64,000 nt of DNA from an uncultured Candidatus Poseidoniales archaeon (GTDB taxonomy: Archaea; Thermoplasmatota; Poseidoniia; Poseidoniales; Thalassarchaeaceae). The notes beneath the pieces were generated by a model. It made no database searches. It saw nothing but the letters and a program-made list of their open reading frames with translations, and was not told where the DNA came from. The position numbers and the translations under genes are program-made. The first letter of the stretch is position 1; the number at the start of each line of letters is the position of its first letter. The stretch covers positions 146,275-210,274 of the forward strand of contig CAJJBW010000001.1 of the NCBI GenBank assembly GCA_905182515.1. The letters are read 5' to 3'. Below, piece by piece: positions 7,921-39,300 of the stretch.

Positions 7921-8361
7921 TTGATTACAGTGGCAGACAATAACCCACCACCTCCGCCTCCAGCAGCAAAACCAACTTCTCCTCCACCTCCGCCTCCAGC
8001 AGCAAAACCAAAGACTATGGGAAGTCCCAAAAAAGTTCCAAAAGCAAACAAACCTTCTAACAAACCTATTAGTAAGAAATCTAAACAAAAGAAAAAATCT
8101 AGAGGGCCGCGCCTTCGATTAAAAATTAAATCTGCAAAAATAGATTCCGATGAAGATAACTACCAATCTCAACGTGGCTGGGTTACGGCTTCTACAGATT
8201 TACTTCCAATCGAAGAAGAGGTAAAAAAAGAACCTGAAATCATGATACACCAATGCACTATGTGTGGATCTAGGATGACCATTCCTAGACCAAAAAGAGA
8301 ACGATATAAAGTCATATGTTCTTATCCGGAATGTGGTCACGAAGATATGGTTGGAGTTTAA
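7921..8361 (+). CDS. Pro/Lys-rich basic protein with a C-terminal CxxC...CxxC zinc ribbon; start uncertain
   Basis: 'HQCTMCGSRM...ICSYPECGHE'. The listed start is TTG. If the ATG at MGSPKK is used instead, the Pro-rich repeat is 5' UTR. Confidence 0.5.
   Translation: MITVADNNPPPPPPAAKPTSPPPPPPAAKPKTMGSPKKVPKANKPSNKPISKKSKQKKKSRGPRLRLKIKSAKIDSDEDNYQSQRGWVTASTDLLPIEEEVKKEPEIMIHQCTMCGSRMTIPRPKRERYKVICSYPECGHEDMVGV
7948..8010. repeat. 27-bp direct repeat at 36-bp period, encoding PPPPPPAAKP twice
   Basis: 'ccacctccgcctccagcagcaaaacca' at 7948-7974 and 7984-8010. Confidence 0.9.
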
Positions 8362-9991: not shown

Positions 9992-11806
9992 ATGGACAAG
10001 TGCTTTTATGCATTTAGCATTACACTAATACTTGCTACATCAAGTATTTCTGGATGCATATTTACCTCAGATGAGGGGGTAACAAATGAGCCAATCGAAA
10101 TTACATATCCTTCAATATATGATCGACATAATATAAATTTTCAAGATAATCACACATTTTCATATACGCTAAAAGAAGGCCAAAATTATGCCTTAGAAGT
10201 ACAGGAAACTTTCATAGAAGTAGATACATCTGATATATGGGAAACAGGTCCAGAAACTTCTGTCGTACATCTGTCTTATTGGTTACCTAATAATACTTTA
10301 GAAGGACACAGAGTTCCAGTAATTGCTATAATAAGTCCATATTTTTCTTATGGCCTACAAGGCGACGAATCAACTCCTACAAATATTATAGGAGCAGGTA
10401 GAGGGGAATTTATTTTTGAGAATTTTGTACCTCATGGATATGCGTTTGTTCAGGTAGCTGTTTTTGGAACAGAACTTTCAAGTGGTTGTTTTGATTATAG
10501 GGGGGCTGGAGAAGGATTAGGCATTCATCATGCTATAGAATGGTTAGGCACTCAAAATTGGTCAAATGGCCATGTTGGATTATATGGCAAATCATATGAA
10601 GGCGCTACACAATGGGAGGCTGCAGCTCTAGGAAGTGAATATTTGAAAACTATAGTTCCAATATCTGGAACGACTGCACTTCATCCTCTACTTTACAAAA
10701 ATGGAAGTGCTGAAGCTAGGAGCCAAGTAATGCATATGAATTATTTTTCAAGTACTGTTGATTATGATGCCGACGATCTAGATAATATTTGTCCAGATAT
10801 TGTTGAAGGATTTTTCGCGGGCCCAATAACCTACGGGGCAGGAGAGTTTGACCCATACATGTCAAATTATTATGATGAGCGAAGCCACATCGATAAAGCA
10901 TTCCAAAACTGGAACGGAAGTGTTTATTGGATACAAGGATTCCAAGATTGGAATGTAGATCCACATCAAGTATTTGGGGGGCCAATAGGGACAAATTGGT
11001 ACCAAGATTATGTTGATGCTGGATATGAAATAAGAGGTATGCTGGGGCAATGGGAACATAATTACCCCGACCAATGGAGTAAACATAATAATCAAGATAT
11101 TGGTTATGGAGGCGAGGCAATCCATAATATGACTCGATGGGATTGGGCTCAAGACTTGTTTGAATGGTATGAGTATTATTTGAAGGGTAATGGACCAAAA
11201 CCAGATTTCGTTGCACAAGTTCAAAGGAATGATGGGCAATGGAGAATAGAAAAAACATGGCCTCCTGAAAACTTATCCTGGCTCATCATACCTCTTTCTG
11301 AATGCGCTACTCCCGGTGCTTTTGTTGGAGGAGGGGCCCCAGTTGTAGGAGGGGGGCAAACTGTTACCACATCATGTACATCCCTTTCTGAAGAAAATGA
11401 TATAAAAATTTCAGGCCTTATTAGATTAGAATTAGAAGTTGTAGCAACAATGGATGGTGGCCAAATATTTGCAGAGCTAAGAGATTCGGAAACGGGCATT
11501 AGACTTGGGCACGCAACAATGGATATCAGATATCATGCTGGAGGCTATGAGCCCCAAACAGTACTACCATCCGAGCAACTCACTATGATGATGGAATTCC
11601 AAGCAATTGATGCAATTTTACCTGCGGGGCATGGTATAGATATTTTATTTTCAGAAACTGGTGAAGATTATCTTGCACCTGCTTGTGGCTCTAGCTGCTC
11701 TATACATATATTACCTTCATTATCCAAACTTTCTATACCTCATATAATCCAAGATGGAGAAGGTATATTAATTACTCCACAAAGCCCAGATGCAGCAAAT
11801 AATTGA
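9992..11806 (+). CDS. Secreted CocE/NonD (S15, X-Pro dipeptidyl-peptidase-like) serine hydrolase; predicted lipoprotein
   Basis: Nucleophile elbow 'GKSYEG'. Signal peptide ends in the lipobox 'ISGC' (Cys22, nt 10055-10057). Confidence 0.8.
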   Translation: MDKCFYAFSITLILATSSISGCIFTSDEGVTNEPIEITYPSIYDRHNINFQDNHTFSYTLKEGQNYALEVQETFIEVDTSDIWETGPETSVVHLSYWLPNNTLEGHRVPVIAIISPYFSYGLQGDESTPTNIIGAGRGEFIFENFVPHGYAFVQVAVFGTELSSGCFDYRGAGEGLGIHHAIEWLGTQNWSNGHVGLYGKSYEGATQWEAAALGSEYLKTIVPISGTTALHPLLYKNGSAEARSQVMHMNYFSSTVDYDADDLDNICPDIVEGFFAGPITYGAGEFDPYMSNYYDERSHIDKAFQNWNGSVYWIQGFQDWNVDPHQVFGGPIGTNWYQDYVDAGYEIRGMLGQWEHNYPDQWSKHNNQDIGYGGEAIHNMTRWDWAQDLFEWYEYYLKGNGPKPDFVAQVQRNDGQWRIEKTWPPENLSWLIIPLSECATPGAFVGGGAPVVGGGQTVTTSCTSLSEENDIKISGLIRLELEVVATMDGGQIFAELRDSETGIRLGHATMDIRYHAGGYEPQTVLPSEQLTMMMEFQAIDAILPAGHGIDILFSETGEDYLAPACGSSCSIHILPSLSKLSIPHIIQDGEGILITPQSPDAANN

Positions 11807-12374
11807 ACAAATTTTAGTAGGGTTGATGATATATGGGTCTCAGGCGCTACATATGTCCCTCCCTCGTCGTGCGATGGAACAAATGGGATTTGCAGTCTGT
11901 TGTCTAATGTGTGATGCAGGGGATGTTGCTGGATCTAACCGATGTAGATATTGCATAGATTCGCATGTCAAAAGTAGAGATAAATTAAACACGCGCCTTC
12001 CAAAAACTAAAGCAGATAGACTAGCTAGAGAGTTTATTACGATGCTAACAGAACCATCAAAATATATAGATGATTCAGATCATGGCGATTCAATGTTATA
12101 TTACTCTAAATTAGTAGATAAACATAATGGTATTGTTCCAGCTAAAACTTCTGAAGATGTAAAAAAAATATTTGAAATGCAAAGAAAAATAAAACCTAAA
12201 TCATTGATAAGAGATGTAGCAAATCAAAATAAATGGGTTGAAGAACCACCAAATGGTATAGAGAGAGAAAAACTGTTGAAGTTAATTACGCAAGACAGCG
12301 TATTAAGTGGTAGTCTTGATTGGGACAATATATTAGATGGGGTAGATGAATTATTAGATAATCAGGATATTTGA
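11790..12374 (+). CDS. Hypothetical soluble protein with an N-terminal CxxC...CxxC zinc finger
   Basis: 'CCLMCDAGDVAGSNRCRYC'. The listed start overlaps the upstream gene by 17 nt; likelier starts are 11853 or 11874. Confidence 0.5.
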   Translation: MQQIIEQILVGLMIYGSQALHMSLPRRAMEQMGFAVCCLMCDAGDVAGSNRCRYCIDSHVKSRDKLNTRLPKTKADRLAREFITMLTEPSKYIDDSDHGDSMLYYSKLVDKHNGIVPAKTSEDVKKIFEMQRKIKPKSLIRDVANQNKWVEEPPNGIEREKLLKLITQDSVLSGSLDWDNILDGVDELLDNQDI

Positions 12375-12405
12375 TTTAGATATAGATTGAGAGAAGTGGA
12401 AAGAA

Positions 12406-13221
12406 ATGACAGCCGAAAGAGATCCTAGAGCATGGTGGTTAGATGATGACCCATTCGACAAAAAAAAACATTCCGATAATACGCAACAAACATCCACCAC
12501 CTCTCCAAAATATGAAAATCCGGCTAACCCGTTCCAAGATATCCTAAATGACTATTTTGGAAATACTGAGAGATACACAATTCCTGTTCATAAAGGTTCG
12601 ATTTGGCACTTTTCAAAAATAGAAATCAAACACCTTATTCAAGCCACACTGGCTTTTACACTTGCTTTAGCATTCATTGGTAAAGGGATAGTGGGCGCCA
12701 TAGAAAATCCTTCAATTTTCATAATCGATGGATTTCTTTATTTCATATCTTTAGCCCCTGCATTTTTACTTCATGAAATGGCACATAAAATAACAGCTAG
12801 AAGATATGGATGTTGGGCAGAATTTCGTGCAAACCCGGCTGGATTACGATTTGGAGTAATTTTAGCCGCTATATTGGGCATCGTTTTTATGGCACCGGGC
12901 GCAGTTATGGTTGCAGGTAGGACAACTACAGCACAATTCGGGCGTATAGCTTTGGCTGGCCCGGTAACAAATATTATACTTTGGAGCATTGGCATTGGCC
13001 TCGCATTAATATTCGGTGAATTAAACATAATATTGGATAGAATAATTCAAACATGGCTATGGGGTAATGCTATTCTAGCCGCTTTTAATATGTTACCGTT
13101 TGGTCCATTAGATGGCAAAAAAATTAAAACATGGTCTGATACTATATTTAATATCTGGTTCTCTATAACTTTAGCAGTCGTATGGATTACTTACAAATAC
13201 TCTTCAATATTATTTGTATGA
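12406..13221 (+). CDS. Site-2-protease-type M50 intramembrane metalloprotease
   Basis: 'HEMAHK' (HExxH) in a TM segment plus 'NMLPFGPLDG' (NxxPxxxLDG). Confidence 0.85.
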   Translation: MTAERDPRAWWLDDDPFDKKKHSDNTQQTSTTSPKYENPANPFQDILNDYFGNTERYTIPVHKGSIWHFSKIEIKHLIQATLAFTLALAFIGKGIVGAIENPSIFIIDGFLYFISLAPAFLLHEMAHKITARRYGCWAEFRANPAGLRFGVILAAILGIVFMAPGAVMVAGRTTTAQFGRIALAGPVTNIILWSIGIGLALIFGELNIILDRIIQTWLWGNAILAAFNMLPFGPLDGKKIKTWSDTIFNIWFSITLAVVWITYKYSSILFV

Positions 13222-13224
13222 TTC

Positions 13225-14955
13225 CTAATTTAACGTATTCAGAACTGGCTTTTCATCACAATGAAAAAATGTTAGTAAAGCCCACCAAGTAATCATATCC
13301 AAACTATTTGCAAGATTTGCTACTCCAGTATTCTCATCACCATAATTTTTACCCATAGTATCCATCCAATTTTCCATTTCTTCTAGTGTATCGCATGTTT
13401 GATGATAACACCAATATCCATCTACTAGACCTCCAAATCCTATTGTAACAGTGCCTAAATTATCTTGGAAACTAGCGTGATCACTTCTTGCTGTAGTGTC
13501 TTCATATACGATTATTTCTGGCCTATCCATGTCTAACCAAACATTAGTTTTCCAAGTATCTGATGAATAATTTGTTCCAACAAGGGTGCCCATTTGCTTT
13601 TCTAGGCCTAAAGAATCTGAGCCAATCCAATTTGATAAACCAATCATTTCAGGTTGATCCAACATGTCATGATTTGGTCCTGGGCCAATATAAACCCTCA
13701 TTGGCCAAATTTCTTCATCTTTAGGGTAACCATCTTCATCAATATTCGGATCAGGATCTCCATGAGGGGCTCCTCCACCTCCGGGCCAATTAACACCAGC
13801 CATATCTAAGTTGATATAATTTGTAACAGTAACTTCGGGATTGTCCTCTTTTACATAATATTCAGTCCAATAATCCGAACCTCTTTTCCCTCCTTCTTCA
13901 CCTGACCAAAGGCAGAAAACCATAGTTCTTCTACTGTCAAATTCAGCTAGGGCTTTAGCAGTCTCAAGAACCATCGAGGTCCCTGCGGTATTGTCATAAG
14001 CACCAACTCTAGTACCATATGTCCTTTCTCCCGTTATATGGGGATCTAATAAAACTGCATTTGCCGGTGGAGCTATATCGAAGTGAGCACCAAAAACCAA
14101 CCACTCATTTATTATTTCTTCTCCCCACTTGTATGCACATATATTGTAAGCTTCAGGATTTTGTGTGCCTACAATGTCCGTAAATTCAAACCTATGAGTT
14201 TTTACTTCTAATCCAAATGAACTCAACTCATCAATAAGATACATAGCCGCATCTTCATATGCAGTATTCCCCTGACCTGCCCATCTATCGTAATATCCAT
14301 TTTTACCATCTATGATATCAAATGTGTCAGTTGGGTCAGTTATTTCATAGAGTCTATCATATACAACCTTACCATTAACAATCCCAGTTGAATGGACCCC
14401 TCCCTCTCCAATACTTGTTGATTGTATTCTCTCGACAAGTATACTTTTGATAATCACAAAACCTCCAGTAATTTTACTTGGTGAAACCGTATCAAATGTT
14501 GTGTTATTTTCCGGCCCACTTCGTTTTATGCCATTTCCAAAATCTCCATCAGGTCCTGAATTAATTAACCATGTATTCCAAGACTCATGTTGGTCTCTTA
14601 TTGGCCAAAATTCTCTATTAATATCACCAATCATAAAAATCATTTCATTAATACGAGGAGGTGCCAATATCGATATATCAATAATTTCTCCTATAGTTAA
14701 ATCAATTACAGTGGAGTTTTGAACAAAACCGGTTTCTGGATCTATTAATAGATATGGAATAAAAACCGACATTTTAGTTGTCGCTTTAAACTCCACTTCT
14801 TGAAAAAAACCTCCTTGCATTATATCAACATCCACTATCAAGTCATTTATATCCAAATTTTTATTTTCTGCTCCTATGCAACCACTAATGGGTCCGGATA
14901 CCATAATCATAACAAGAAATAAAGCAATATTACGTTGAGGCAAATATGAAAACAT
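13225..14955 (-). CDS. Secreted M28-family aminopeptidase with an unknown ~250-aa N-terminal domain; predicted lipoprotein
   Basis: M28 metal ligand contexts 'GAHFD', 'DNTAGTS', 'SGEEGG', 'NLDM' and 'SDHASF'. Lipobox 'ISGC' (Cys26). Confidence 0.8.
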   Translation of the reverse strand: MFSYLPQRNIALFLVMIMVSGPISGCIGAENKNLDINDLIVDVDIMQGGFFQEVEFKATTKMSVFIPYLLIDPETGFVQNSTVIDLTIGEIIDISILAPPRINEMIFMIGDINREFWPIRDQHESWNTWLINSGPDGDFGNGIKRSGPENNTTFDTVSPSKITGGFVIIKSILVERIQSTSIGEGGVHSTGIVNGKVVYDRLYEITDPTDTFDIIDGKNGYYDRWAGQGNTAYEDAAMYLIDELSSFGLEVKTHRFEFTDIVGTQNPEAYNICAYKWGEEIINEWLVFGAHFDIAPPANAVLLDPHITGERTYGTRVGAYDNTAGTSMVLETAKALAEFDSRRTMVFCLWSGEEGGKRGSDYWTEYYVKEDNPEVTVTNYINLDMAGVNWPGGGGAPHGDPDPNIDEDGYPKDEEIWPMRVYIGPGPNHDMLDQPEMIGLSNWIGSDSLGLEKQMGTLVGTNYSSDTWKTNVWLDMDRPEIIVYEDTTARSDHASFQDNLGTVTIGFGGLVDGYWCYHQTCDTLEEMENWMDTMGKNYGDENTGVANLANSLDMITWWALLTFFHCDEKPVLNTLN

Positions 14956-14961
14956 AACTAC

Positions 14962-17900
14962 TCAACTACTACTTCGTTTTTTAATCGAAATGTTACAATT
15001 TGAAATACTAACCACTTCAATATTTGGAATGAAAACAAGAGGCCTAGTAAATTTATTTTCACTCGCTTCTTCTTCTATTATCTTAATCTCTGCAGCTCTT
15101 CTTCTCTTACTTCGTTTTTTCATTCTAGCCCTAACTCGCCATGTGATAAATAATAATAGAATTACTATATATGGTAAAAGTTGTTGCAGAATCCATTGCC
15201 ACCCAATTACTAAATTAAAATTTAAGGTATCGCTTGAATCTGAAAGCATTCTATATTTTATCACCTGCCGTCCTTCACTATTGAATTCCATACTTGTTAT
15301 AGTATTAAGTGAACTTAATTCTTCCAACTTAATTCCTAGGGGTAAAGTAAGCGTTAAGTCTACAGGCATATCAAATGAATTACTACTTGGAATAGGAGTT
15401 TGTATCCCGTCTAAAACTAATCCATCTATTATTGTGGATGCTGCGACCATTGTAATAGCGTTAGTCAAACCATCCATCGCAGTAATCATAGGTGTCATTA
15501 TTGGGGTAACTATATTTTCAATCATCGGAGCATTTATGTCAATATTCAGATTATCTAATCCATCGCCATTAACTATGTCAAATATTTCAGACCAGCTATT
15601 TCCTAACCCTACTGTAGTTCTTACCTTGGGTATACTTATTGAAAGAACAATTCCATTTCGATCCCCAATAATACCATCATCATCAATTAAACCTTCAAGA
15701 GTAGTGTTAATTTGGAAACCATCAATATTAATTTCCCCCATTGAAGGTTCTGTTTGTAATTCTGATTTTATTAAACTAGTAATACTTTCGCCAAAATTAT
15801 TAGTAAATTCTGTAATGCCAGCAGTTGAAAACTCAATTACCTGTTCTTCTCTACAAATGTCTATTTGATCGTTGTCGCATATAGAAAATGTTGTTGAATA
15901 TGGAGACTCGCCTCTGTCTGCAATCTCTAAGATTAATTTTAATAAATCAGCTGGTAGAACTGGTATAGAAACATCTGTTGAATCGCTTTTCATAGAATCT
16001 AAAATTGAATTAGGCACCTCTATACGATGTATAGCTACTTCCATATTTAGTTCAAACTCGATAGATATCCCTTTTTGTAATTCAGAAAAAGAATATTCTG
16101 AAATATCTAATTCAATGGAACTTCTTTTACATGATTTTTCTTCAGATGTGCAAAATACATCTGCACTAACATCTGAACAAGATGATAAACCATCATAACA
16201 AAGTGCATGAGACCAATCAAAAGAATTAGATCCCTGTAATCCAAAGTTACCAATATAATTGTTATCTGTTTTATGAAATAAAGTAATTATATTTCCGCCT
16301 TCACTATTTGATGCCCAAGTTGGTAAAATTAATTTTAGATTTATTTCCGTACTCCCCATTCCAGTAGGTTTCATTGAACTCAAAAAACTAGGATCTAAGA
16401 TAGTTTCAAATGACATTCCACTATTAACTATTTGTTCTAAATCGTCTTGCGTAACGCCACTAAGAAAACTTAAATCTCCTAACTTATCTCCAATCAAATC
16501 ACTTAGAGCAAGTTGAAATGGCTGACTTGTACTTCTTAGATAAACAGGATAATTATTACTCATTGCAGCATCCCCAGATGTACAATAATTTACTCCTACT
16601 TCTTCACAATCCGCCAAAGTATGTTGATAGTTTAAACCTCCTGGAAGTAACCCAGAATTATCTAAAGAACTATCTAATATCCATTCAAAATCACCCATTT
16701 GTACTGATAATCCAGGTACAGTTTCAGAAAGTGAATTACCAACAGTACTGACCGGAAACTTGTTTGATATTGAATCAAGATCAATCAATCCATTGTGATG
16801 AGCCATTCTTATACCATCAGATGTAACAACTGGGATGTTGCCTTTGTCAGTAGGAATTAATTCTAAACCATCTATTGAACCAGTTTCAATATGATTTATT
16901 GTTGCAACCAAATCAATAGTAGCAGCATTTTCATTAGACAAGTCAAGTACAACTTCCAAATCCATAGATTTAGAATTTGATTCCAAATTAAATGTGTTAG
17001 TGGTTTCATTATTTCTAAAGCCCATCATAAATTCCAAATTAGAGGAATATGTAGACGCTGAATTTAAATTATTAATTTGCCATTTCCCTGAATAATATGG
17101 AAAATCACCAGAAACAGGAATTTTTTCTGCCGTTGGTCCATTGGTGCCAATTATTGTTGCATATGGAGGCGGATCAATATAGTATGTACTTTTATGTCCA
17201 GACTCGGTATTGACAGGTAATTCAGTTTTAACCTGCCCACCCATTACCAATAGAGATTTATAGGCACTTTCTAAATTAAGATTCGAATTGGTATTAAGTC
17301 CAAATTTATCTGCGGATAATCCTATTTCTACTGTTGTCTGAATGCATATTGGAGGAGTGTAAGCATTTCCATTGTCGTCCTGTGCTCCATCAATTTCACA
17401 ATTGACTATTACACCATTATTTTCAACTTCATTAGCCCATGTTGTACTAGGAGAAGAAGCACTTCCCAAGGAACTTAATATATTCTCCACACTAGAATTA
17501 ATTTCACCCATTAATTTATCTTTAACTAATATTGAGCCCTGCTCACCATCCCAAGGCTCATTCCATGAGTTACGTATTACGTCAGCAGGTATTCCATCAC
17601 CTTGGAAAATACCGTCATTTTCTAATAATAAATCTGCTACCGAATTTGAGAAGCCCAATGGCGCCCTAGCGTATTCATATATTGCCCAAGTTGCACTAAA
17701 TTCCATGGTCTCCGTGTCTTTCATATTTATGTTATATATGCCCTCAATCCATGATTCTCGGCTTGACCCATCATGAGCACCATTAACATCATCACAAATG
17801 CCTTCATTTTCCATACAAATTTCTAAATTATCAACATCTGTATTTGCACTTGCAACTGGTAAAATAATTTGAATTAAGAAAATAATTATCATAAATATTA

Positions 17901-17964
17901 CAATATTATTATTATATTTTTGTTGAGAAGAGAAAGAAGCTTTCGATGCTAGCCGCTCAACCAT
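14962..17964 (-). CDS. 1000-aa type I surface protein with signal peptide, large ectodomain, C-terminal TM and basic tail; hypothetical
   Basis: Signal '...ILPVASA/NT'. C-terminal 'LLPYIVILLLFITW' followed by 'RVRARMKKRSKRRR'. Only 6 nt upstream of the M28 gene. Confidence 0.7.
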   Translation of the reverse strand: MVERLASKASFSSQQKYNNNIVIFMIIIFLIQIILPVASANTDVDNLEICMENEGICDDVNGAHDGSSRESWIEGIYNINMKDTETMEFSATWAIYEYARAPLGFSNSVADLLLENDGIFQGDGIPADVIRNSWNEPWDGEQGSILVKDKLMGEINSSVENILSSLGSASSPSTTWANEVENNGVIVNCEIDGAQDDNGNAYTPPICIQTTVEIGLSADKFGLNTNSNLNLESAYKSLLVMGGQVKTELPVNTESGHKSTYYIDPPPYATIIGTNGPTAEKIPVSGDFPYYSGKWQINNLNSASTYSSNLEFMMGFRNNETTNTFNLESNSKSMDLEVVLDLSNENAATIDLVATINHIETGSIDGLELIPTDKGNIPVVTSDGIRMAHHNGLIDLDSISNKFPVSTVGNSLSETVPGLSVQMGDFEWILDSSLDNSGLLPGGLNYQHTLADCEEVGVNYCTSGDAAMSNNYPVYLRSTSQPFQLALSDLIGDKLGDLSFLSGVTQDDLEQIVNSGMSFETILDPSFLSSMKPTGMGSTEINLKLILPTWASNSEGGNIITLFHKTDNNYIGNFGLQGSNSFDWSHALCYDGLSSCSDVSADVFCTSEEKSCKRSSIELDISEYSFSELQKGISIEFELNMEVAIHRIEVPNSILDSMKSDSTDVSIPVLPADLLKLILEIADRGESPYSTTFSICDNDQIDICREEQVIEFSTAGITEFTNNFGESITSLIKSELQTEPSMGEINIDGFQINTTLEGLIDDDGIIGDRNGIVLSISIPKVRTTVGLGNSWSEIFDIVNGDGLDNLNIDINAPMIENIVTPIMTPMITAMDGLTNAITMVAASTIIDGLVLDGIQTPIPSSNSFDMPVDLTLTLPLGIKLEELSSLNTITSMEFNSEGRQVIKYRMLSDSSDTLNFNLVIGWQWILQQLLPYIVILLLFITWRVRARMKKRSKRRRAAEIKIIEEEASENKFTRPLVFIPNIEVVSISNCNISIKKRSSS

Positions 17965-18098
17965 ATTACTTGACTATAAAGTATCATTAATCTATGATTC
18001 GGTATTAGGATTCATTTATTAGATATTTTTATATAAATAATAATTAAATAGATACTTGTAAGGGAGCACTTGAAACCCTATGACTTATCCAAACAAAT

Positions 18099-19229
18099 AT
18101 GCCGAGTTGGCTTATTTCAAATTCACCTCGGACATTCGAAGAAATAGCGATTCCCAAATCTGTTTGTAAGTCATTAAAGATTGCCAGCACTTCTTCAGAC
18201 CCCCCGCATTTACTAATCACAGGTCCAGCAGGTGTAGGAAAAACAATTTCGTGGCAATTATATGCAAGGCAGATTCTTGGTGCCGGCTGGAAATCTACAA
18301 CACATATTTTACAATGTAGAGATTTGGTACGAAAAAGAGGCGCAATGGCGCAATTTGAAGAATTTTTAAGACCAGGTGGATCCTCCGCGAATACTCTTGC
18401 AGGCATGATAAGTCTGGACTCCTTTGATAGAGAAATTTTCACAAAAGAAGAAGGGGACATCCCTCCTGCCGGACAAGAAAACGATATTGGTAATAAAATA
18501 CCAATAAGCCGTTTAATAATTTTAGAAGATGCAGATTACTTAGGCCATATTAGACAGGCATATCTACGTAGAATGATGGAGACAGTAGGAAATGCTTCTA
18601 GATTCATATTGGTGACCCGCGCCCCTTCTAGAATAATAGATGCATTAAGGTCAAGAACTCAAATGATCCGAATTCCCTCAACAAGTAATGACTTAATTAT
18701 CGATACACTGGCAAATATCCCTACATTTAATTCTAGACAACCTTCAGTTGGCGTTTTAGAAGATATTGCCTATATATCACAAGGAAATCTAAGGAAATCA
18801 ATTTTTATTCTAGAACTATTAGATATGCGAAATCTATCTTCAGACCGCTCGGCTGTACATAACCTAGTCCAATCTACCACACTTCAATCAAGTCGCCATA
18901 TACTAGAAATGTCCCTAAGAGGGGCGGTTGTTGAATGGCGGTGGGAGAATAAAGCAGGAAGAAAGCGTAAAGTTTTATCAGGGGCAATGGCAGAAATTGA
19001 TAACCTAATGAATAATTATGGACTTGATTCTGACGACATAGTGTTACAGTTACACGATGTGCTAATAGGTAGAAGGTTAACATTACCAGATAAACTTAGA
19101 GAAAAGTTACTTTCATCCTTGGCGATTTGCGACACAACATTGCAGAAGTCCACATATGCAAGAATACATTTTGAAAATTTTCTTCATAAAGTGGCCAAAG
19201 CTGGAAAAGAACACGGACTTGCATTTTAA
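18099..19229 (+). CDS. Replication factor C-like AAA+ clamp-loader subunit (divergent)
   Basis: Walker A 'GPAGVGKT', 'ILEDADYL', 'RFILVTR' and 'ALRSRTQMIRI' (SRC-box position). N-terminal 'WLISNSPRTFEEI' resembles the RFC box. Confidence 0.7.
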   Translation: MPSWLISNSPRTFEEIAIPKSVCKSLKIASTSSDPPHLLITGPAGVGKTISWQLYARQILGAGWKSTTHILQCRDLVRKRGAMAQFEEFLRPGGSSANTLAGMISLDSFDREIFTKEEGDIPPAGQENDIGNKIPISRLIILEDADYLGHIRQAYLRRMMETVGNASRFILVTRAPSRIIDALRSRTQMIRIPSTSNDLIIDTLANIPTFNSRQPSVGVLEDIAYISQGNLRKSIFILELLDMRNLSSDRSAVHNLVQSTTLQSSRHILEMSLRGAVVEWRWENKAGRKRKVLSGAMAEIDNLMNNYGLDSDDIVLQLHDVLIGRRLTLPDKLREKLLSSLAICDTTLQKSTYARIHFENFLHKVAKAGKEHGLAF

Positions 19230-19249
19230 TTTACATCAAACCCTAAGTT

Positions 19250-20038
19250 TTGAGTATAACCCACCCGTCAGCGAATATTGTGTACCGTTCCGGAAACCCC
19301 GCTCTTTCTAATTCAACATTTGAAAAAAACTCATATAAAGATATGAATTGGTGGGATAATTCAGAATCAAATTTAATGACAATCGAGGGAGTTGCAGAAA
19401 AAACAGCATTTTTATTATTAATTACCGCAACTAGTGCTATAGCAACTGCAATGATGATGCCAGGAGCAGCATTATTGTGTGTCTTAGGCTTCATTGGTAG
19501 CCTTATTTGTTTAATTATGGTAATGTGGTCAAAGTCCAACAGCCCCTTATTAATTTGTTCATACGCTTTATTTGAAGGCTTATTATTGGGTGGCATTACA
19601 TGGATATTTGAAGTATCTACTGGCATAGAAGGCTTAGGAATAATTTCTGCTGGGATAACATTTCTAATACTTGGGGTAATGATTACAATTTATAGATTAG
19701 GATTAATACATTGGGATAAAAATATGCAAATAGCAGTTACTTCATCAATGATGGCTATTATGTTAATATATTTAATTTCAATACTTGGTTCATTTTTAGG
19801 ATATAATATGCCTTATATACATGGCTCAGGGACAATTGGAATAGCATTTTCAGTCTTTGTTGTCGGTATTGCATCATTATGTTTGGTTGCCGATTTTGAT
19901 TTTATAGAAAGAGGTGTATTGAAAGGAGCACCAAAACAACTAGAATGGAGAGCGGCATTTGGCTTACTCGTTACCTTAGCATGGTTATATCTTGAAATAT
20001 TAAAATTAGTGTCAAAAATTGCTGCATCGAGGAATTAA
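19250..20038 (+). CDS. Bax inhibitor-1/YccA-like integral membrane protein
   Basis: N-terminal 'YRSGNPALS' and about 7 TM segments. The listed start is TTG; an alternative GTG lies at 19280. Confidence 0.5.
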   Translation: MSITHPSANIVYRSGNPALSNSTFEKNSYKDMNWWDNSESNLMTIEGVAEKTAFLLLITATSAIATAMMMPGAALLCVLGFIGSLICLIMVMWSKSNSPLLICSYALFEGLLLGGITWIFEVSTGIEGLGIISAGITFLILGVMITIYRLGLIHWDKNMQIAVTSSMMAIMLIYLISILGSFLGYNMPYIHGSGTIGIAFSVFVVGIASLCLVADFDFIERGVLKGAPKQLEWRAAFGLLVTLAWLYLEILKLVSKIAASRN

Positions 20039-20040
20039 AT

Positions 20041-20673
20041 TTGGAATTTGATTTAATATTAGCATTAAGCGTAGCAGGAATAATGCTCGGAGTAATAGAG
20101 GGAATAAAACCCGGGCCTTTACTAACTATGGTGATTAAAGAAACCCTATCGGGAGGATTAAAAGCAGGAATTTGGACTGCAGCAGCGCCAATATTTACCG
20201 ATGGGCCACTGATCATTATCAGTTTGTTTGCAGCAACCTGGTTTTCAACAAGACCCGTATTCTTAGCCATAATATCATTGCTTGGAGCAATATTCTTGAT
20301 AAAAATGGGATTTGAATGTTTTTCAATCGAACCCCCAGATCTAAAATCTACTAATTCTGAATATTCTAAATCTTTTAAGAGAGGAATATTAACTAATTTA
20401 TTAAATCCTAACGTTTATGTATTTTGGTTTTTAATAGGCGGTCCATTGATGGCTTCAGTTGTGAATGAGGAGCCATTAGCACCCGTCGCTTATGCAATTT
20501 CTTTCCTAATTTCGATAATTGCTGTAAAAACAACAATAGCATATTTCTTTGATAAAACTAGAGGGCAAATATCTTCAAAAACCTACAAACTATGTTTATC
20601 TATATGTGGCATAGCAATGATAATATTTGCATTTGGCTTCCTGTATCAAGCTATTGATCTATTCAATGTTTGA
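20041..20673 (+). CDS. LysE/RhtB-family amino-acid exporter
   Basis: 'GIKPGP' near the N-terminus and 'LTNLLNPNVYVFW'; 6-TM size. TTG start. Confidence 0.7.
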   Translation: MEFDLILALSVAGIMLGVIEGIKPGPLLTMVIKETLSGGLKAGIWTAAAPIFTDGPLIIISLFAATWFSTRPVFLAIISLLGAIFLIKMGFECFSIEPPDLKSTNSEYSKSFKRGILTNLLNPNVYVFWFLIGGPLMASVVNEEPLAPVAYAISFLISIIAVKTTIAYFFDKTRGQISSKTYKLCLSICGIAMIIFAFGFLYQAIDLFNV

Positions 20674-20677
20674 ATAA

Positions 20678-22186
20678 TTATAAGGTAGAAAAACCACCTT
20701 CTGGAAGGGGATTCAAGGGGACAGTGGATTCCCTCAGACTAGGGCCGGTCATCATTGTCCCATATATTCCCTGATCTACAATATTATGCGAAAGGCCGAA
20801 CCATGGCCTACCATGCTTATCAATTAAAATATCAATAAAATCACCAAATCCTCCACATCTGTTGTACCCACAATCAATTGTAGTATCAAGTGGATCTCCA
20901 AAATTATTGACTTGAATTGTAGTGATTAGTGGCATAGGAGAGAAAGCATCAGTCATAACTGAAATATATCCATTCCAAGTATTACCCCCCGAATCACCAA
21001 GATATGCAAATGCCACACGTCCAGAATCACCTGCTGCGAGGGCAGGAAAACCCGTTCCATTTAGATTAGTAGGTGGAGCAATCATAATCGGGTCACTCCA
21101 AGTATCACAATTATCAAATGAATATGAATAATAAGGCATATTGTCCAAACCAATCCACATTGCATGAACATTATTGTCCTCATCAGGATAAACTTGCGCT
21201 TCTTCTGCATTCCAAGTTGCTGCAGTTCCAGTTTGATCTGTAGGCAATTCATGTTCAGTCCATGTCAAACCTCCGTCTGAACTTCGATAAATTGAATACC
21301 CTTCTCCATCGCAACTAGGATTACCTCGGTAAAAATTACCATTGTTTGATCCAACCATATGCCCAGTTAAACCTCCGCTGTTACAATTAGCAGGTGCACC
21401 AGGTACCTCAGGGCCCCAAGTTAAACCACCGTCTTGACTTGTTGAACAGAGTGGAGATTGCCAATTCCCATTTACACAGAAAACCCATGTGGTTTCATGC
21501 AAGAGAGCATTATAGGGAGAGGATGCAATTGTCTGGTGATCTTGTACGGAATACCCGGTTGCAAATGATGATAGCCCCAATGGGCCCCATGTTTCGCCTT
21601 CATCATCAGACCATTCCACAGTCATTCCTACTAACGCATGCATGTCAAATTTCATTATTCTATCAGTCCAAGGGTCAACGTAAACATAAGGGTCATTGCT
21701 ATTGGCAATTTGTCCTTGGTATGTATTTTCACAGGAATAGTCTAAACTAGTCATTTCAATCATATTAGAACACCTAATTATTGCAGTGGAACCACCAGGG
21801 CCATTGCCCCAACTAGTCATGAATAGATTATCTTCTGATGTTATTCCAATAGTTGGCTCAAATGTAGAAAAACCAATTCCATAATATGTCCCTTTTGAAC
21901 AAATTGGAATATTTTCACCTACTAAAATAGTAGTTATGTCGATAGAACTGTCAACATTACGAATATCAGTAGAATTTGGAAAATGATACCATGAATTATT
22001 AGCAAAACCATCAGGGCATATTTCATCAAAAAATGAATCTATCCCTCCCATCTCATTTGATTCTTTACTAAAACAACCAGATACCATTGAGGTTAAAACC
22101 AATAAAACAACAAATGCTGTAACGGTCTTCATATTTCTACGGCCGTGCTTTCTATACATCATATGTACGGCGAGGTGCTCTCTCAT
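20678..22186 (-). CDS. Secreted BNR/Asp-box beta-propeller (sialidase-fold-like) protein, paralog A; predicted lipoprotein
   Basis: Asp-boxes 'SDDEGETW', 'SQDGGLTW', 'SSDGGLTW' and 'FDNCDTW'. The likely true start is 22132 (MKTVTAFVVLLVLTSMVSGC). Confidence 0.75.
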   Translation of the reverse strand: MREHLAVHMMYRKHGRRNMKTVTAFVVLLVLTSMVSGCFSKESNEMGGIDSFFDEICPDGFANNSWYHFPNSTDIRNVDSSIDITTILVGENIPICSKGTYYGIGFSTFEPTIGITSEDNLFMTSWGNGPGGSTAIIRCSNMIEMTSLDYSCENTYQGQIANSNDPYVYVDPWTDRIMKFDMHALVGMTVEWSDDEGETWGPLGLSSFATGYSVQDHQTIASSPYNALLHETTWVFCVNGNWQSPLCSTSQDGGLTWGPEVPGAPANCNSGGLTGHMVGSNNGNFYRGNPSCDGEGYSIYRSSDGGLTWTEHELPTDQTGTAATWNAEEAQVYPDEDNNVHAMWIGLDNMPYYSYSFDNCDTWSDPIMIAPPTNLNGTGFPALAAGDSGRVAFAYLGDSGGNTWNGYISVMTDAFSPMPLITTIQVNNFGDPLDTTIDCGYNRCGGFGDFIDILIDKHGRPWFGLSHNIVDQGIYGTMMTGPSLRESTVPLNPLPEGGFSTL

Positions 22187-23691
22187 AACTTGAGTGTGGA
22201 ATTACCACCTTCAGGTATAACTGGTAATTGTAAAATTGTGCCATATAATGAAGGCCCAGTAGTTAAGGTTCCTATTATGGCTTCATCACTACCTGCAGCA
22301 TTGTGGGCCAAGGCAATCCAAGGCCTTCCCTCATCATCAATCTCTATATCTATAAAATCACCAAATCCTCCGCACCTTATATTCCCGCAATCAGGTAAAA
22401 TATCCAAAGGGTCACTTGGTATGTTAACTGCAACACTAGTAATTAGGGGATTTTCAGCAAATACATTAGTCATAATTGACATATAGCCAGACCAACCTCC
22501 TCCTGATGATTCATTCCAGTCTCTAGATTCTCCTATATATCCAATCACCACTCTTCCAGAATCTCCAGCAAATATTGTTGGAAAACCAGTTTCATTAACT
22601 TCTGGTGGAGCAACCATCATTGGAACACTCCAAGTTTCCCCTTGATCCTTGGAATATGCATACCATGGCATTTGATCATCAGATATCCAAGTAGCATGAA
22701 CATTCCCTCCTTCATCAACAGCGGTTGCAACCTCATGAGAATGCCATCCTTGCTGCATCCCAATCACGGTAGTTATGGTATGCTCACTCCAAGTTACTCC
22801 ACCGTCTAGTGAACGGTAGACTGCCGGACCTTCACATGATGGATTTCCTCTATAAATTGAACCATCTGTACCTGCAGCGAGATGGCCGTGTAACCCTGAG
22901 CATTGACTACCAAATGACTCAGTAGGGTAACCCAATCTCTGAACATCCCATGTCTGGCCACCTGTGACGGAACGAGAGCATTGAGGGCCAGCAGCAGCAG
23001 ATCCGGTGTTAATGCAATAAACATATACCACATCTCCAATAATGGCATTTGAATGCGGTACAGATGCTATACTCTGATGGTCTTGAGTTACATAATAACC
23101 TTCAACAGGATAGGGGATACTCCAAGATTCTCCATCATCATCAGAGTATTCTACAAACATAGCTGCCAGTGCATGCATATCAAATTTTACTAATCTATCA
23201 TTGAATTTATCAACATATAAATATGGATCGTTAGAATTTGGTGTTTGCCCCGAATCATCATCAACTTGGCCAAATGGCCCTACATCTTCCCATGTTTGCC
23301 CTTGATCTTGTGATCTAATAATATGTGTTCCGTCTCCAAGTCCATTATAATTTGTAAAGAAAATAGCGCCCGATGAAGTAATTCCTAATGTGGGCTCAAA
23401 AGTATCCCATCCAGTCCCATAATAGGTTCCAGCGGAATAAAAAGGAATGTTATCTCCTGTTAGATTTGGAGTTATATTTGCATTTAATACTGCATTAGGG
23501 TCAGTAGCATCAATTGCCCATGGGTTTATTGGATTACCAGGATAATGGTACCATGTAGTAATAGGAATTTCCCCTTCTTCAAAGGAAAAAATACCATTGG
23601 TTTCTTCCATATTGTCTTCTTTTACGGATAAACAACCAGATAAAGTAGGCATTATCATGAGTATCGCAATAAACATACTAAGGTTTCTCAT
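22183..23691 (-). CDS. Secreted BNR/Asp-box beta-propeller protein, paralog B; predicted lipoprotein
   Basis: Asp-boxes 'SQDQGQTW', 'SDDDGESW', 'SVTGGQTW', 'SLDGGVTW' and 'SKDQGETW'. Lipobox 'LSGC' (Cys20). Confidence 0.8.
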   Translation of the reverse strand: MRNLSMFIAILMIMPTLSGCLSVKEDNMEETNGIFSFEEGEIPITTWYHYPGNPINPWAIDATDPNAVLNANITPNLTGDNIPFYSAGTYYGTGWDTFEPTLGITSSGAIFFTNYNGLGDGTHIIRSQDQGQTWEDVGPFGQVDDDSGQTPNSNDPYLYVDKFNDRLVKFDMHALAAMFVEYSDDDGESWSIPYPVEGYYVTQDHQSIASVPHSNAIIGDVVYVYCINTGSAAAGPQCSRSVTGGQTWDVQRLGYPTESFGSQCSGLHGHLAAGTDGSIYRGNPSCEGPAVYRSLDGGVTWSEHTITTVIGMQQGWHSHEVATAVDEGGNVHATWISDDQMPWYAYSKDQGETWSVPMMVAPPEVNETGFPTIFAGDSGRVVIGYIGESRDWNESSGGGWSGYMSIMTNVFAENPLITSVAVNIPSDPLDILPDCGNIRCGGFGDFIDIEIDDEGRPWIALAHNAAGSDEAIIGTLTTGPSLYGTILQLPVIPEGGNSTLKL

Positions 23692-36340: not shown

Positions 36341-39300
36341 ATGAGTAACGCGAGCCAGTCCAAAAGAACAGCTTCTTTTCTAGTATTATTAATGATATTA
36401 ACTCCTGTATTAAGTTTGCAAACAAGTATGTTAGACACAAATCAAATTGATATTGAAAATAATTTCCAATTTAGAACTAATTCAAGTAATTCTGTAGTCG
36501 ATTGTGAATTAACAAATGTAACTATTACCGAGATTTATCACTATGGTAGTAACGAATGGTTCGAACTACATAATAGTGGTAATGAAACATGTGATTTGGG
36601 AGAATGGATAATCGGCGACAATGACGGATCTAATTTTCAGATTTCCAACGATACTAATATTACTTCTGATGGGTATATGTTATTCTCTAGAAGTAATAAT
36701 GATTTTAATTTCGACGTATCATGTTCTAATACAATGCTAATTGCAACTAGGGATGTTAGTTTTTCTAATGCAACCGACATAACCTCTTTGAGTTGTTACG
36801 GAGAATATGACGATAATTATTACACCACTAGTGGCGACGGCTCATGGGAGAATTGCAACGATGTGTGGGATTGGAATGAACCAGATGAGATGACTCCTAA
36901 TGCTACTAACTTATGCGCGGGTAATCCAATTATTTTATATGCCTTAGAATCGGATGGAACTTTAACCCAAAATCCAATTTCTATTAATAATGGAAGCTCA
37001 ACATTATTTTGGAATACAAGTAACTTACAAGATGGTCTTGAATACCAACTTTATTCAAATTGGAATTCTGAAACTTCATATGATTCCCAAACTAGTATTT
37101 TTATTGCAGATGGTTCAGATATAGAATTTAATTTAGATTCGAATCCATACTGGACCTGTGAAATTGGAATTAATGCATACATACTAAACCAATCTTCAGG
37201 TCAAACTGTAGAAAGATATACTAATGATTTAGACGTAAATTGCGATGTAGAAACGTCTCTTATATTGACGCATGTTTCCGATGGTTCAGAAGTAATTAGT
37301 GATGGATTCAATTTTAGCGGTAATAACTGGGGAGGAGACATTAAGTGGACAATTAGTAGTACAGAAATGAATATTCAAAATGATTACAAGTTGCAGGTAA
37401 TCATAAACCAAGACGATGAAGTAACATACTTCTCTCAAAGTGATTCCTGCGATAGCTGGCTAACATCTACTTCCTGTTTTATTGAAGAAAATTTTGTAGT
37501 TTATAACGAAACTTGCGACATATCAATTTTAGGATCATTCTACACAATTTCACCTTATGGATGGACAGAAATTGGAAGTAAAGAAATTAATGGTGTTGGC
37601 CTCTGTGATGGCGTTTCTGATGAGATTGAACCAGCAATTAGTCTATATATGAAAAATACTCTAAATGGTGAAACTTGGACAGAAGTTACAGATGACAATT
37701 ACGAACTTGATGAAAATACGACTACTCAAGAGTACTATTGGCAGTTTTCGGAATCTGCAATTGGTTCTGATGTAAGATTCCTATTCTATTATGAATATGA
37801 AAATGTAATGGATGAACAGTATAATTATGATGGCCTTCCAATATTTTGGAATGCTTCAATTAACGATTGCAATCCAAATATATATGCATATATCTATCTA
37901 TCCTCGCCAAATGGCGCTTCTCAAAACATCGATTATTGGTCCAGAACTATGTCTATAAGTTGTGAAGATTCAGAAGATATTGCTTTGCATATTCACAATG
38001 AAAGTAACTCCGACAATGACCTAGACAATGGAACAACAAATATGATCACAAATCTATCTAATCTTAATATTGGTGAAGAATACTTATTTGAGTGGTATTC
38101 ATATGAAAGTAGTTCATATACTGCTTCTAATGATGGTGCTGTTTATGGCGAGTATTATGACACATATACATTTACTCCTACATCTGAATTTGAATTAATT
38201 AATTGGGCTTTTGAAACACCTGGCCATTTATGTTCTATTACTATCTATTCTAATCTATATGTTATGTCAAACTTTTCTCAAGAATGGTGGCCCGTAGAAC
38301 AAATAGCAACTAATGATTGGCAGGAAGTAGATTATGCTAGCCTTGGTACTAGTGGCATCTGTGATGGTTCTGATATAGCCGAATTCAGCCCTGTAAATTT
38401 ATATTATAATTATGAAAATACATGGATTGAAGTAAACGAATCTACAAATTTATCTTCAGGAATTCATGATATGAAATGGCAAATTAGCGGTCTTAGCGAA
38501 GATATCAGCCTCTCACTTAACACCAATGTTGAGTATTATCTAAATAGTACTTATCATAGTTCATCCTACATTGGAAACGGAAATTTTGAATCTATTTGGG
38601 AACTAACTGTATCAGATTGGTCTTGTAATATCAATTATGAATTTGACTTGTATTTCTATACTATGAACGGAAATGGATATAATATTGACCAAGAAGTTGA
38701 CAATTCATTTATAGATGGGCCTTGCAACTCTCCAGTAGATGTTAGTAGTAGCAATGGCAATGAACCTAGCATGTCAGTGTCAGTTGTTGAAGGAAATACA
38801 GTAACTGAGATTGATTCAGGGAACCAGCTGAATGAAGGTGTAAATACCCTTAGATGGAATATTCAAGATCCAGTAGAAGATTATGAGCATTATATTCACA
38901 TGTATTTACAGTATAATGGAGCAAGACAAGAAATTTTATCCCATAGCTTCATTGCAGATTCTGGAGATATGTATGGAGATTGGACAATAGATATCCAAGA
39001 AGATGCGTGTGACTTGTATTTATTTTCAAGTTTATACGTTAAAGAGTATAATACTTGGGACCAAATCGACTCTCAAGGTATAAATATAGGTTATTCTGGA
39101 AATAATTCTGATTGTAATTACTCTACTCACCAATTTACAATTTCTGCATTAGATAATGAGACGTGGATTCAGAATCCAGATTCTCTAAATATCGGAATGA
39201 ATCAATTGAAATTCGACATCGAATCCCTTGATTTATTTGATAATATGACTTATTATATTAATACTAATTTTAATGGAATAGGATCAAATTCATTCAGTTT

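Follow-up and report, generated by a model that had tools for sequence, protein, structure and literature searches.

Lipoprotein-type signal peptides predicted on two peptidases and two beta-propeller proteins from a Marine Group II archaeon

Introduction

In the surface ocean, Marine Group II (MGII) archaea rank among the most abundant heterotrophs, and proteins and other polymers are presumed to sustain them. The stretch of DNA analyzed here (64 kb, hereafter referred to as the window) comes from such an organism, an MGII archaeon (Poseidoniales) that is nearest to MGIIb and whose genome carries archaeal genes for thermosome, RFC, deoxyhypusine synthase and geranylgeranyl reductase; the names of homologs likewise place it among the archaea. 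The window encodes four putative secreted proteins in which a hydrophobic N-terminal stretch ends in the tetrapeptide x-S-G-C, and thus raises the questions of (i) whether these are lipoprotein signal peptides; (ii) whether the conserved cysteine would carry a lipid in this archaeon; and (iii) whether such proteins form a class apart from the C-terminally anchored surface proteins encoded nearby.

Lipoproteins have been predicted across the Euryarchaeota and DPANN, and outside the haloarchaea their predicted export is mostly by the Sec pathway (Hong et al. 2025, PMC12462473). Mutation of the lipobox cysteine affects the processing of haloarchaeal lipoproteins (Storf et al. 2010, PMC2945643). 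No homologs of Lgt, Lsp or Lnt are known in archaea, and in 2024–25 AliA (arCOG02177) and AliB (arCOG02178) were identified as archaeal lipidation enzymes; lipidation in Haloferax requires both, and a thioether-linked archaeol serves as the anchor (PMC12462473). The view expressed in an earlier note on this DNA, that archaeal maturation is poorly understood and its machinery not recognizable, has been superseded by this work (Hong et al. 2025, PMC12462473). We found no literature tying MGII to the lipobox or to Lgt.

Results

Four signal peptides end in a lipobox

The four proteins had been described as having a short N-terminus, a hydrophobic stretch and then [ILV]-S-G-C, and all of the open reading frames and cysteine positions proved to be as claimed (Table 1). 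The lipobox was defined strictly, as [LVI][ASTVI][GAS]C closing a hydrophobic stretch at the N-terminus, and in this form is present in all four. Their n-regions are short (MDKCFY, MFSYLPQRN, MKTVT and MRNLS) and none contains the RR of the Tat twin-arginine motif, the h-regions comprise 10–15 hydrophobic residues, and the residue at +2 is hydrophobic in every case.

Table 1. Predicted lipobox proteins and C-terminally anchored surface proteins of the window
Feature	Position	Strand	Length (aa)	N-terminal signal	Lipobox Cys (codon)	C-terminus
S15 peptidase (X-Pro dipeptidyl-peptidase / CocE-NonD family), predicted prolipoprotein	9992-11806	+	604	N-terminus MDKCFYAFSITLILATSSISGC; signal peptide aa 1-21 (9992-10054); lipobox I-S-G-C	Cys22 (10055-10057)	
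M28 metallopeptidase (Pfam PF04389, Peptidase_M28, 2e-21), predicted prolipoprotein	13225-14955	-	576	Signal peptide aa 1-25, ...VMIMVSGPISGC; lipobox I-S-G-C; Pro at -4	Cys26 (14878-14880)	
1000-aa surface protein	14962-17964	-	1000	Signal peptide without lipobox (…ILPVASA/NT)		Helix aa 922-944; basic tail
BNR-A, BNR/Asp-box beta-propeller, predicted prolipoprotein	20678-22132	-	484 (from Met at 22132)	Lipobox V-S-G-C (...TSMVSGC)	Cys20 (22073-22075)	
BNR-B	22183-23691	-	502	Lipobox L-S-G-C (...IMPTLSGC)	Cys20 (23632-23634)	
3382-aa giant surface protein	36341-46489	+	3382	Ordinary signal peptide		…GFLPGFSSIMGAVSMLGAAILVAGRRKD
316-aa secreted protein	48697-49647	-	316	Signal peptide (…NVSG/QE)		Helix aa 288-315

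For BNR-A, the longest open reading frame (20678–22186, minus strand) overlaps the BNR-B stop codon in an ATGA and would make the lipobox residue Cys38. A start at its Met19 (position 22132) is supported at the sequence level, because the NCBI call for the same gene is likewise 484 residues long and because the closest orthologs (82–84% identity) begin with MK, have Cys20 and are without the upstream extension. BNR-A and BNR-B are tandem paralogs (47% identity).

The motif is short, which is all that favors reading x-S-G-C after hydrophobic stretches as a chance co-occurrence, and we consider the likelihood of this practically negligible. The strict motif occurs only six times in the 20,117 residues of 49 proteins, and four of these six occurrences end an N-terminal hydrophobic stretch. 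When the first 45 residues of the seven signal-peptide proteins were shuffled, a mean of 0.18 motif matches was obtained, and four were reached in none of 20,000 trials. Scanning all six frames, with 1,109 possible starts, turned up no further open reading frame that begins in this way, the sole exceptions being internal helices in two polytopic membrane proteins. Together with the conservation in homologs described below, these results refute chance as an explanation.

The classical PROSITE-type rule for prokaryotic lipoproteins reads {DERK}(6)-[LIVMFWSTAG](2)-[LIVMFYSTAGCQ]-[AGS]-C, with the cysteine at position 15–35 and a lysine or arginine within the first seven residues. In this form, the pattern is passed by the S15 peptidase, BNR-A (from Met19) and BNR-B and failed by the M28 peptidase, because the latter has a proline at −4 and its first basic residue only at position 8. 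The description of all four as canonical thus holds for the four-residue lipobox, M28 included, but not for the classical pattern, outside which M28 falls.

Two peptidases and two beta-propellers

All four proteins had also been called hydrolase-like. Pfam backs this for the two peptidases, the S15 protein matching PF02129 (Peptidase_S15, 1e-35) and PF08530 (PepX_C) as well as NCBIfam CocE_NonD, but the BNR pair is hydrolase-like at the fold level only. Pfam BNR_2 is barely over its cut-off of 31.4 in BNR-A and BNR-B (31.6 and 35.8), and the PDB profile matches of the pair lie mostly over short repeat regions. In the AlphaFold2 model of BNR-B (pLDDT 86), a helix (residues 2–18) and a low-confidence linker (24–29) precede the beta-propeller, and the top Foldseek matches of this model are sialidases, GH145 enzymes and non-enzymatic lectins alike, at query-length-normalized TM scores of about 0.4–0.5. 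BNR-A and BNR-B are candidate, not proven, hydrolases; assignment as sialidases (GH33) was not adopted, the evidence for it being that of a generic propeller.

The lipobox cysteine is conserved while its surroundings drift

The G-C pair is retained in 98 of 99 distinct BNR and in 74 of 74 distinct S15 homolog N-termini, and for M28 it directly follows the h-region in 57 representative homologs taken from clusters at 50% identity or less. Information content reaches 4.3 bits at −1 and +1, compared with 1–2.5 bits at most of the other positions between −8 and −4 of the signal peptide. In homologs from MGIIa, MGIIb and MGIII, down to about 55–60% identity, G-C is essentially invariant and the neighboring signal-peptide residues vary freely. 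The clade has its own version of the motif, in which −1 is always glycine, +2 is usually phenylalanine, leucine or isoleucine, and −3 is hydrophobic; an acidic or Gly/Ser-rich segment follows the lipobox in the homolog families. The alignments therefore support strong purifying selection on the lipobox cysteine in three unrelated families and, since homologs keep G-C even as the remainder of their signal peptides drifts, the lipobox of the four proteins is, to judge by sequence, no relic.

This conservation bears on the possibility that the genes were acquired from bacteria and that the lipobox came with them as a bacterial signal, without being used as such in the archaeal host. The S15, M28 and BNR families are indeed mainly bacterial, as judged by their PDB and NCBIfam matches, and the motif cannot be told apart from the lipobox of bacteria. 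However, a neutral relic would decay, whereas here G-C is invariant in all three MGII and MGIII groups amid varying neighbors, and the motif has acquired a flavor of the clade's own at −1 and +2; we regard such an origin without function as quite improbable.

A second alternative is that the signal peptides are cut by signal peptidase I, or remain uncleaved as signal anchors, and that the cysteine is kept for a disulfide, as a metal ligand or for a similar role, no lipid being attached. Inspection of the S15 protein points to a candidate site for signal peptidase I (A-T-S, small-x-small) five residues upstream of the cysteine. About 10 distant full-length M28 relatives have an N-terminal helix but no cysteine, and membrane tethering without a lipobox therefore occurs in the M28 family. 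Non-lipidated Haloferax precursors can remain membrane-bound via their signal peptide, and the absent or patchy occurrence of AliA in Thermoplasmata (see below) would also fit this explanation. Yet it would require three unrelated folds each to need a functional cysteine exactly at the end of the h-region, preceded by glycine and with a hydrophobic residue at −3; the BNR-B cysteine precedes the low-confidence segment and lies outside the folded domain of the model; and no fewer than 11 additional unrelated secreted families of MGII and MGIII share the motif. We therefore consider a lipid-free role of the cysteine unlikely.

Taken as a whole, the sequences support the assignment of lipoprotein-type signal peptides to S15, M28, BNR-A and BNR-B in an archaeon. 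It is likely that the four genes encode Sec-type prolipoproteins of this MGII archaeon, and by analogy with characterized lipoproteins their products are very probably lipid-anchored at the cell surface.

Lipobox and C-terminal anchor exclude each other

The other surface proteins of the window had been said to combine an ordinary signal peptide with a C-terminal anchor, and this was seen in three of three: the signal peptides of the 1000-, 3382- and 316-residue proteins are free of cysteine, and all three carry a C-terminal hydrophobic helix. The 1000-residue protein matched no family in Pfam or NCBIfam, and the 316-residue protein resembles NF041740 ('choice-of-anchor T'; 5e-14) with 52 bits, under the cut-off of 70. 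At the C-terminus of the 3382-residue protein, the tripeptide PGF precedes a helix and a basic RRKD tail, an arrangement that, by eye only, resembles a sorting signal. Archaeosortase (ArtA)/PGF-CTERM processing, with its C-terminal lipid anchoring, is an alternative means by which large surface proteins are held in place in archaea; it is inapplicable to the four lipobox proteins. Assignment of the 3382-residue protein as an archaeosortase A substrate was rejected, as NCBIfam reported only sub-threshold LPXTG and VPXXXP-CTERM matches and not the PGF-CTERM model.

Within the window, lipobox and C-terminal anchor are thus mutually exclusive (four versus three proteins; Fisher p=0.029, two of the four being the BNR paralogs). 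The same holds in a wider sample, 1.25 Mb of related MGII/MGIII loci, where a C-terminal helix was found in 0 of 151 lipobox open reading frames versus 32 of 82 other secreted-like ones, a census that relies on our own crude hydrophobicity heuristic, is biased to BNR gene neighborhoods and is trustworthy only for the lipobox side and for large C-terminally anchored proteins, its non-lipobox class including false positives such as Rossmann-fold N-termini and LysE fragments. Mutual exclusion is therefore supported in both samples. Possession of a lipobox is, furthermore, all-or-none within families: across 80 MGIIa, MGIIb and MGIII genome loci it was found in 126 of 126 BNR, 6 of 6 M28, 5 of 5 S15 and 4 of 4 M23 proteins, and in all three members of one unknown family.

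The proposal that enzymes are anchored N-terminally and structural proteins C-terminally is borne out as a tendency, but it is no rule: an amidohydrolase-domain protein in another locus (L088) has a signal peptide and a C-terminal helix, and an enzyme domain could be recognized in only about half of the lipobox families found.

Synteny of the four lipobox genes extends to close relatives only. Assembly GCA_054183625.1 contains this locus as well. Homologs with 65% identity (in MGII) and 57% identity (on a contig of 69% G+C) lie in unrelated gene neighborhoods, and a conserved operon was therefore rejected; the four-gene cluster is no functional unit.

Discussion

By analogy with Haloferax volcanii and bacteria, the cysteine thiol would, after export, become thioether-linked to a glyceryl lipid from a membrane phospholipid, through an AliA-type transferase or an analog of it. 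The signal peptide would then be cut directly before the cysteine by an archaeal counterpart of signal peptidase II (we know of no archaeal lipoprotein signal peptidase), and the N-terminal lipid would keep the mature protein attached to the outside of the cytoplasmic membrane. In a planktonic heterotroph surrounded by dilute seawater, such a tether would hold the S15 and M28 exopeptidases and the BNR propellers at the surface, where their products could be taken up and not lost, and the same may apply to the M23 and alpha/beta-hydrolases of other clade members. A C-terminal helix or sorting signal would instead hold the large proteins that are rich in repeats or resemble adhesins. A division of this kind, with exopeptidases and propellers built to stay at the surface via a predicted N-terminal lipid and adhesin-like giants anchored C-terminally, would refine the view of how MGII cells harvest dissolved organic matter.

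The likeness to Haloferax volcanii lies in the archaeal host, in a signal peptide ending in [L/V/I][A/S/T][G/A/S]C, in the conserved cysteine, which in Haloferax is needed for processing, and in substrates that are extracytoplasmic enzymes and binding proteins. However, the four MGII proteins are without a twin arginine and their sequences suggest Sec export, unlike the lipoproteins of haloarchaea, which are for the most part Tat substrates; the MGII motif is also the narrower one. With bacterial Lgt/LspA/Lnt lipoproteins they share the tripartite signal peptide, the lipobox, the linker after the cysteine, the principle of fixing hydrolases and binding proteins on the outside of the membrane and, in three of the four proteins, the classical pattern; the archaeal anchor characterized so far is an ether-type archaeol, in contrast to the bacterial diacylglycerol. 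The four proteins are an expected case of a documented archaeal lipoprotein class, in which a known mechanism is extended to an uncultured lineage and the paradigm is unchanged.

The only point of wider consequence is the identity of the enzyme and of the lipid that this clade would use. In the 2015 arCOG survey, which gives locus tags MMP0328 and HVO_2859 and seven transmembrane segments for AliA/AliB, arCOG02177 is listed as missing from Thermoplasmata (PMC5898192, Table 1), and in 2025 it showed 'several gaps in Thermoplasmata' (PMC12462473). No AliA or AliB candidate gene was found within the 64-kb window. In the 1.25 Mb of related loci there are 30 polytopic membrane families, too small a sample for inference on lipidation enzymes; those annotated are LysE, BaxI, DUF6198, TauE, UbiA, CDP-OH transferase, ceramidase, MMPL, Na/Ca exchanger and MscS, and four unknown families with five to seven transmembrane segments had no Pfam or NCBIfam match.

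Poseidoniales might therefore make lipoproteins without AliA or AliB, via an undiscovered lipidation enzyme, an unusual lipid anchor or both. We hold this to be somewhat unlikely and keep it in view because arCOG02177 is absent or patchy in the phylum, because MGII are without G1P dehydrogenase, their membrane lipids being uncharacterized (PMC6962369), and because some archaea with many predicted lipoproteins are without both enzymes (Hong et al., PMC12462473). If it were true, the G-C-[F/L/I] lipobox, being invariant and carried by abundant surface peptidases, would offer a practical handle, and the N-terminal cysteine lipid, detectable in marine metaproteomes, would report the MGII membrane glycerolipid directly.

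Lipobox-containing proteins of the window

On re-reading, the coordinates and residues that the earlier note had given for an S15 peptidase, an M28 peptidase and the paralogous BNR-A and BNR-B were all exact, and the lipobox observation on these four proteins is confirmed: among the genes of window 9992-23691, each has an N-terminus that ends in a lipobox (see table). The domain assignments also hold, and BNR-A and BNR-B are tandem paralogues with 47% identity.

Coordinates of the features discussed (in the window, unless a sampled locus is named)
Feature	Position	Strand	Description
S15/CocE-NonD peptidase	9992-11806	+	N-terminus MDKCFYAFSITLILATSSISG followed by C; Cys22 at nt 10055-10057
M28 metallopeptidase	13225-14955	-	N-terminus …LFLVMIMVSGPISG followed by C; Cys26
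BNR-A, BNR/Asp-box propeller	20678-22186	-	N-terminus …FVVLLVLTSMVSG followed by C
BNR-B, BNR/Asp-box propeller	22183-23691	-	N-terminus MRNLSMFIAILMIMPTLSG followed by C; Cys20
BNR-B/BNR-A overlap	22183-22186	-	ATGA
1000-aa contrast protein	14962-17964		signal peptide without Cys, C-terminal helix
3382-aa giant surface protein	36341-46489	+	signal peptide without Cys, C-terminal helix
316-aa contrast protein	48697-49647		signal peptide without Cys, C-terminal helix
Membrane metalloprotease	12406-13221	+	271 aa
Pro- and Lys-rich ORF	7921-8361	+	146 aa
Amidohydrolase-domain protein, L088	10750-13656	+	968 aa
7-TM protein, L046	2565-3299	+	244 aa
7-TM tandem pair, L045	3087-5249	-	357 aa each
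TraB-family protein / CPBP/Rce1-like protease, L008	8187-9335 and 660-1367	both +

The lipobox of BNR-A had been made conditional on a start at 22132. An in-frame ATG of BNR-A lies across the BNR-B stop codon and gives an 18-codon upstream extension; the JGI and ENA calls accept it (502 aa), but the NCBI call, on the identical gene in GCA_054183625.1, does not (484 aa). The closest orthologues (82-84% identity; fetched loci L010-L012 and L015) start with MK, have the Cys at position 20 and lack an upstream extension, and where such extensions are present they are not conserved. On this orthologue evidence we favour the shorter form, which begins at the proposed start.

A strict lipobox, [LVI][ASTVI][GAS]C, matched six times in 49 likely window proteins (20,117 residues), and four of these matches are those of S15, M28, BNR-A and BNR-B. 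When residues 2-45 of seven signal-peptide proteins were shuffled with Cys content kept, the mean number of proteins with the motif was 0.18 and none of the 20,000 trials reached four, so that among the window proteins the shared motif is more than chance. When the 1,109 possible starts of the window were all scanned in six frames, no further ORF with a lipobox N-terminus emerged; the other matches fell only in internal helices of a permease and a DUF454 protein.

Between the S15 and M28 genes lies a membrane metalloprotease that contains HEMAH and weakly matches Peptidase_M50 (site-2 protease), in the same position in the close relative L001; any role in lipoprotein processing would be speculative. 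Elsewhere, a short ORF has an extremely Pro-rich and Lys-rich N-terminal half (…NNPPPPPPAAKPTSPPPPPPAAKPK…).

Conservation of the lipobox cysteine

Where distinct N-termini of homologues have a hydrophobic stretch, it is followed by G-C in 98 of 99 BNR and all 74 S15 sequences, and the same is seen in 57 M28 representatives, which are diverse, since each stands for one cluster at 50% identity or less. Gly at -1 and Cys at +1 are invariant (4.3 bits), position -3 is L, F, M or I, position -2 is S, A or T, and F, L or I at +2 precedes a stretch rich in Gly/Ser and Asp/Glu. Positions -8 to -4 mostly carry 1-2.5 bits, with up to 3.0 in the S15 set, which consists of closely related sequences. The sequences show lipoprotein signal peptides of the Sec type (no RR) that are subject to purifying selection. 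The AlphaFold2 model of BNR-B (pLDDT 86) places a helix at 2-18 and a low-confidence segment at 24-29 ahead of the propeller, a predicted layout of signal helix, linker and folded domain as expected for a lipoprotein. About ten distant full-length M28 relatives have an N-terminal helix without Cys in place of the lipobox; tethering is therefore kept even where the lipobox is not.

Host organism

The window encodes the archaeal markers thermosome, RFC, deoxyhypusine synthase, a diphthine-synthase-type methylase, a TYW2-type enzyme and geranylgeranyl reductase, and the MAGs in which the four proteins have homologues bear the labels Poseidoniales, Thalassarchaeaceae, Poseidoniaceae, MGIII or Thermoplasmatota. 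Since MGIIb-N1 (78% identical) is the best-matching GTDB species representative, the sequence places the window in an archaeal Marine Group II (MGII) lineage near MGIIb. BNR homologues 74% and 68% identical occur in MAGs labelled Gemmatimonadetes bacterium (L049) and Yoonia sp. (L054), most likely misbinned archaeal contigs. A 3.0 Mb contig with 69% G+C (L007) encodes a BNR homologue (57% identical) with an L-S-G-C lipobox, and thus the family and its lipobox reach beyond low-GC MGII; a 333-aa protein with …ATAAGC adjoins this homologue.

Anchoring and protein function

The earlier note had ascribed ordinary signal peptides and C-terminal anchors to the non-hydrolase surface proteins, and the three other secreted proteins in the window indeed combine a signal peptide without Cys with a hydrophobic helix near the C-terminus, after which basic residues come. 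By eye, the C-terminus of the giant (…LPGFSSIMGAVSMLGAAILVAGRRKD) looks like a PGF-CTERM archaeosortase sorting signal; in NCBIfam the PGF-CTERM model was not reported for the giant, and the matches to LPXTG and VPXXXP-CTERM, the only ones given, were sub-threshold. A resemblance of the 316-aa protein to the 'choice-of-anchor T' family scores below cut-off.

We extended this comparison to 80 loci of MGIIa, MGIIb and MGIII genomes that surround BNR homologues; together with the window they comprise 1.25 Mb with 1,019 ORFs (120 aa or longer), a sample skewed to BNR neighbourhoods. A simple signal-peptide heuristic, which admits false positives to the non-lipobox class, selected 233 secreted-like ORFs, 151 of them with a lipobox. 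A C-terminal helix occurs in none of these 151, in contrast to 32 of the 82 others; lipobox and C-terminal helix therefore robustly exclude each other. These ORFs form 53 families, 12 with a lipobox, which is all-or-none by family (BNR 126/126, M28 6/6, S15 5/5, M23 peptidase 4/4, one unknown family 3/3). Further lipobox families include a PETase/chlorophyllase-like alpha/beta-hydrolase that also has thrombospondin repeats and a protein whose matrixin motif is weak; five or six are without a known domain. The C-terminally anchored proteins that lack a lipobox are mostly large repeat proteins. A Peripla_BP_2 binding protein has no canonical lipobox.

The interpretation that enzymes are lipid-tethered N-terminally and structural proteins anchored C-terminally is thus partly supported, as a tendency but not a rule: the L088 protein, with signal peptide, lamin-tail, amidohydrolase and pacifastin-like domains, a C-terminal helix and no lipobox, is a counter-example. 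BNR-A and BNR-B are only possibly hydrolases. Their BNR_2 scores lie at the gathering threshold, sialidases in a profile search of PDB sequences match mainly over short, repeat-containing stretches, and sialidases, GH145 enzymes and non-catalytic Photorhabdus lectins match the BNR-B model about equally (query-normalised TM-score ~0.4-0.5).

Proposed lipidation pathway

Following the Haloferax and bacterial paradigms, the Cys would be thioether-lipidated, cleavage would occur before it and the mature protein would be retained on the membrane's outer face, which may hold exopeptidases beside the cell's transporters. Hong et al. (PMC12462473), using SignalP 6.0 on 524 archaeal genomes, found predicted lipoproteins prevalent in Euryarchaeota and DPANN and mostly Sec-exported outside haloarchaea. 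In Haloferax, AliA (arCOG02177) and AliB (arCOG02178) are required for lipidation, and the anchor is a thioether-linked archaeol (PMC12462473); the premise that archaea have no recognisable lipidation machinery is therefore out of date. Archaeal lipoproteins are already known, and the four MGII proteins add members to that class; in the literature searched, we found no paper that links MGII with lipobox or Lgt.

That MGII uses a pathway other than AliA or has an unusual anchor is a residual and rather unlikely reading. AliA was marked absent in Thermoplasmata in 2015 (PMC5898192, Table 1) and had 'several gaps in Thermoplasmata' in 2025, and some genomes rich in predicted lipoproteins are without both AliA and AliB (PMC12462473). 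G1P dehydrogenase is missing from MGII, whose membrane lipids are uncharacterised (PMC6962369).

The unannotated 5-7-TM proteins of the sampled loci had no Pfam or NCBIfam family match. Two conserved, uncharacterised 7-TM sets without such a match are a protein that contains GDGVTGIVRN and lies next to ThrC, near the gene for geranylgeranyl reductase (L046), and a tandem pair whose first member has an N-terminal zinc-ribbon-like CxxC…CxxC (L045). On the MGII contig L008, where BNR-B has a homologue of 65% identity, the gene two places upstream of that BNR lipoprotein encodes a strong TraB-family (Tiki superfamily) protein (TIGR00261, 330 bits), with a CPBP/Rce1-like intramembrane protease nearby. 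The Tiki-like arCOG02142 is the other unassigned membrane family flagged as co-occurring with archaeal lipoproteins (PMC12462473), and the TraB-family protein, of the same superfamily, is a lead only.
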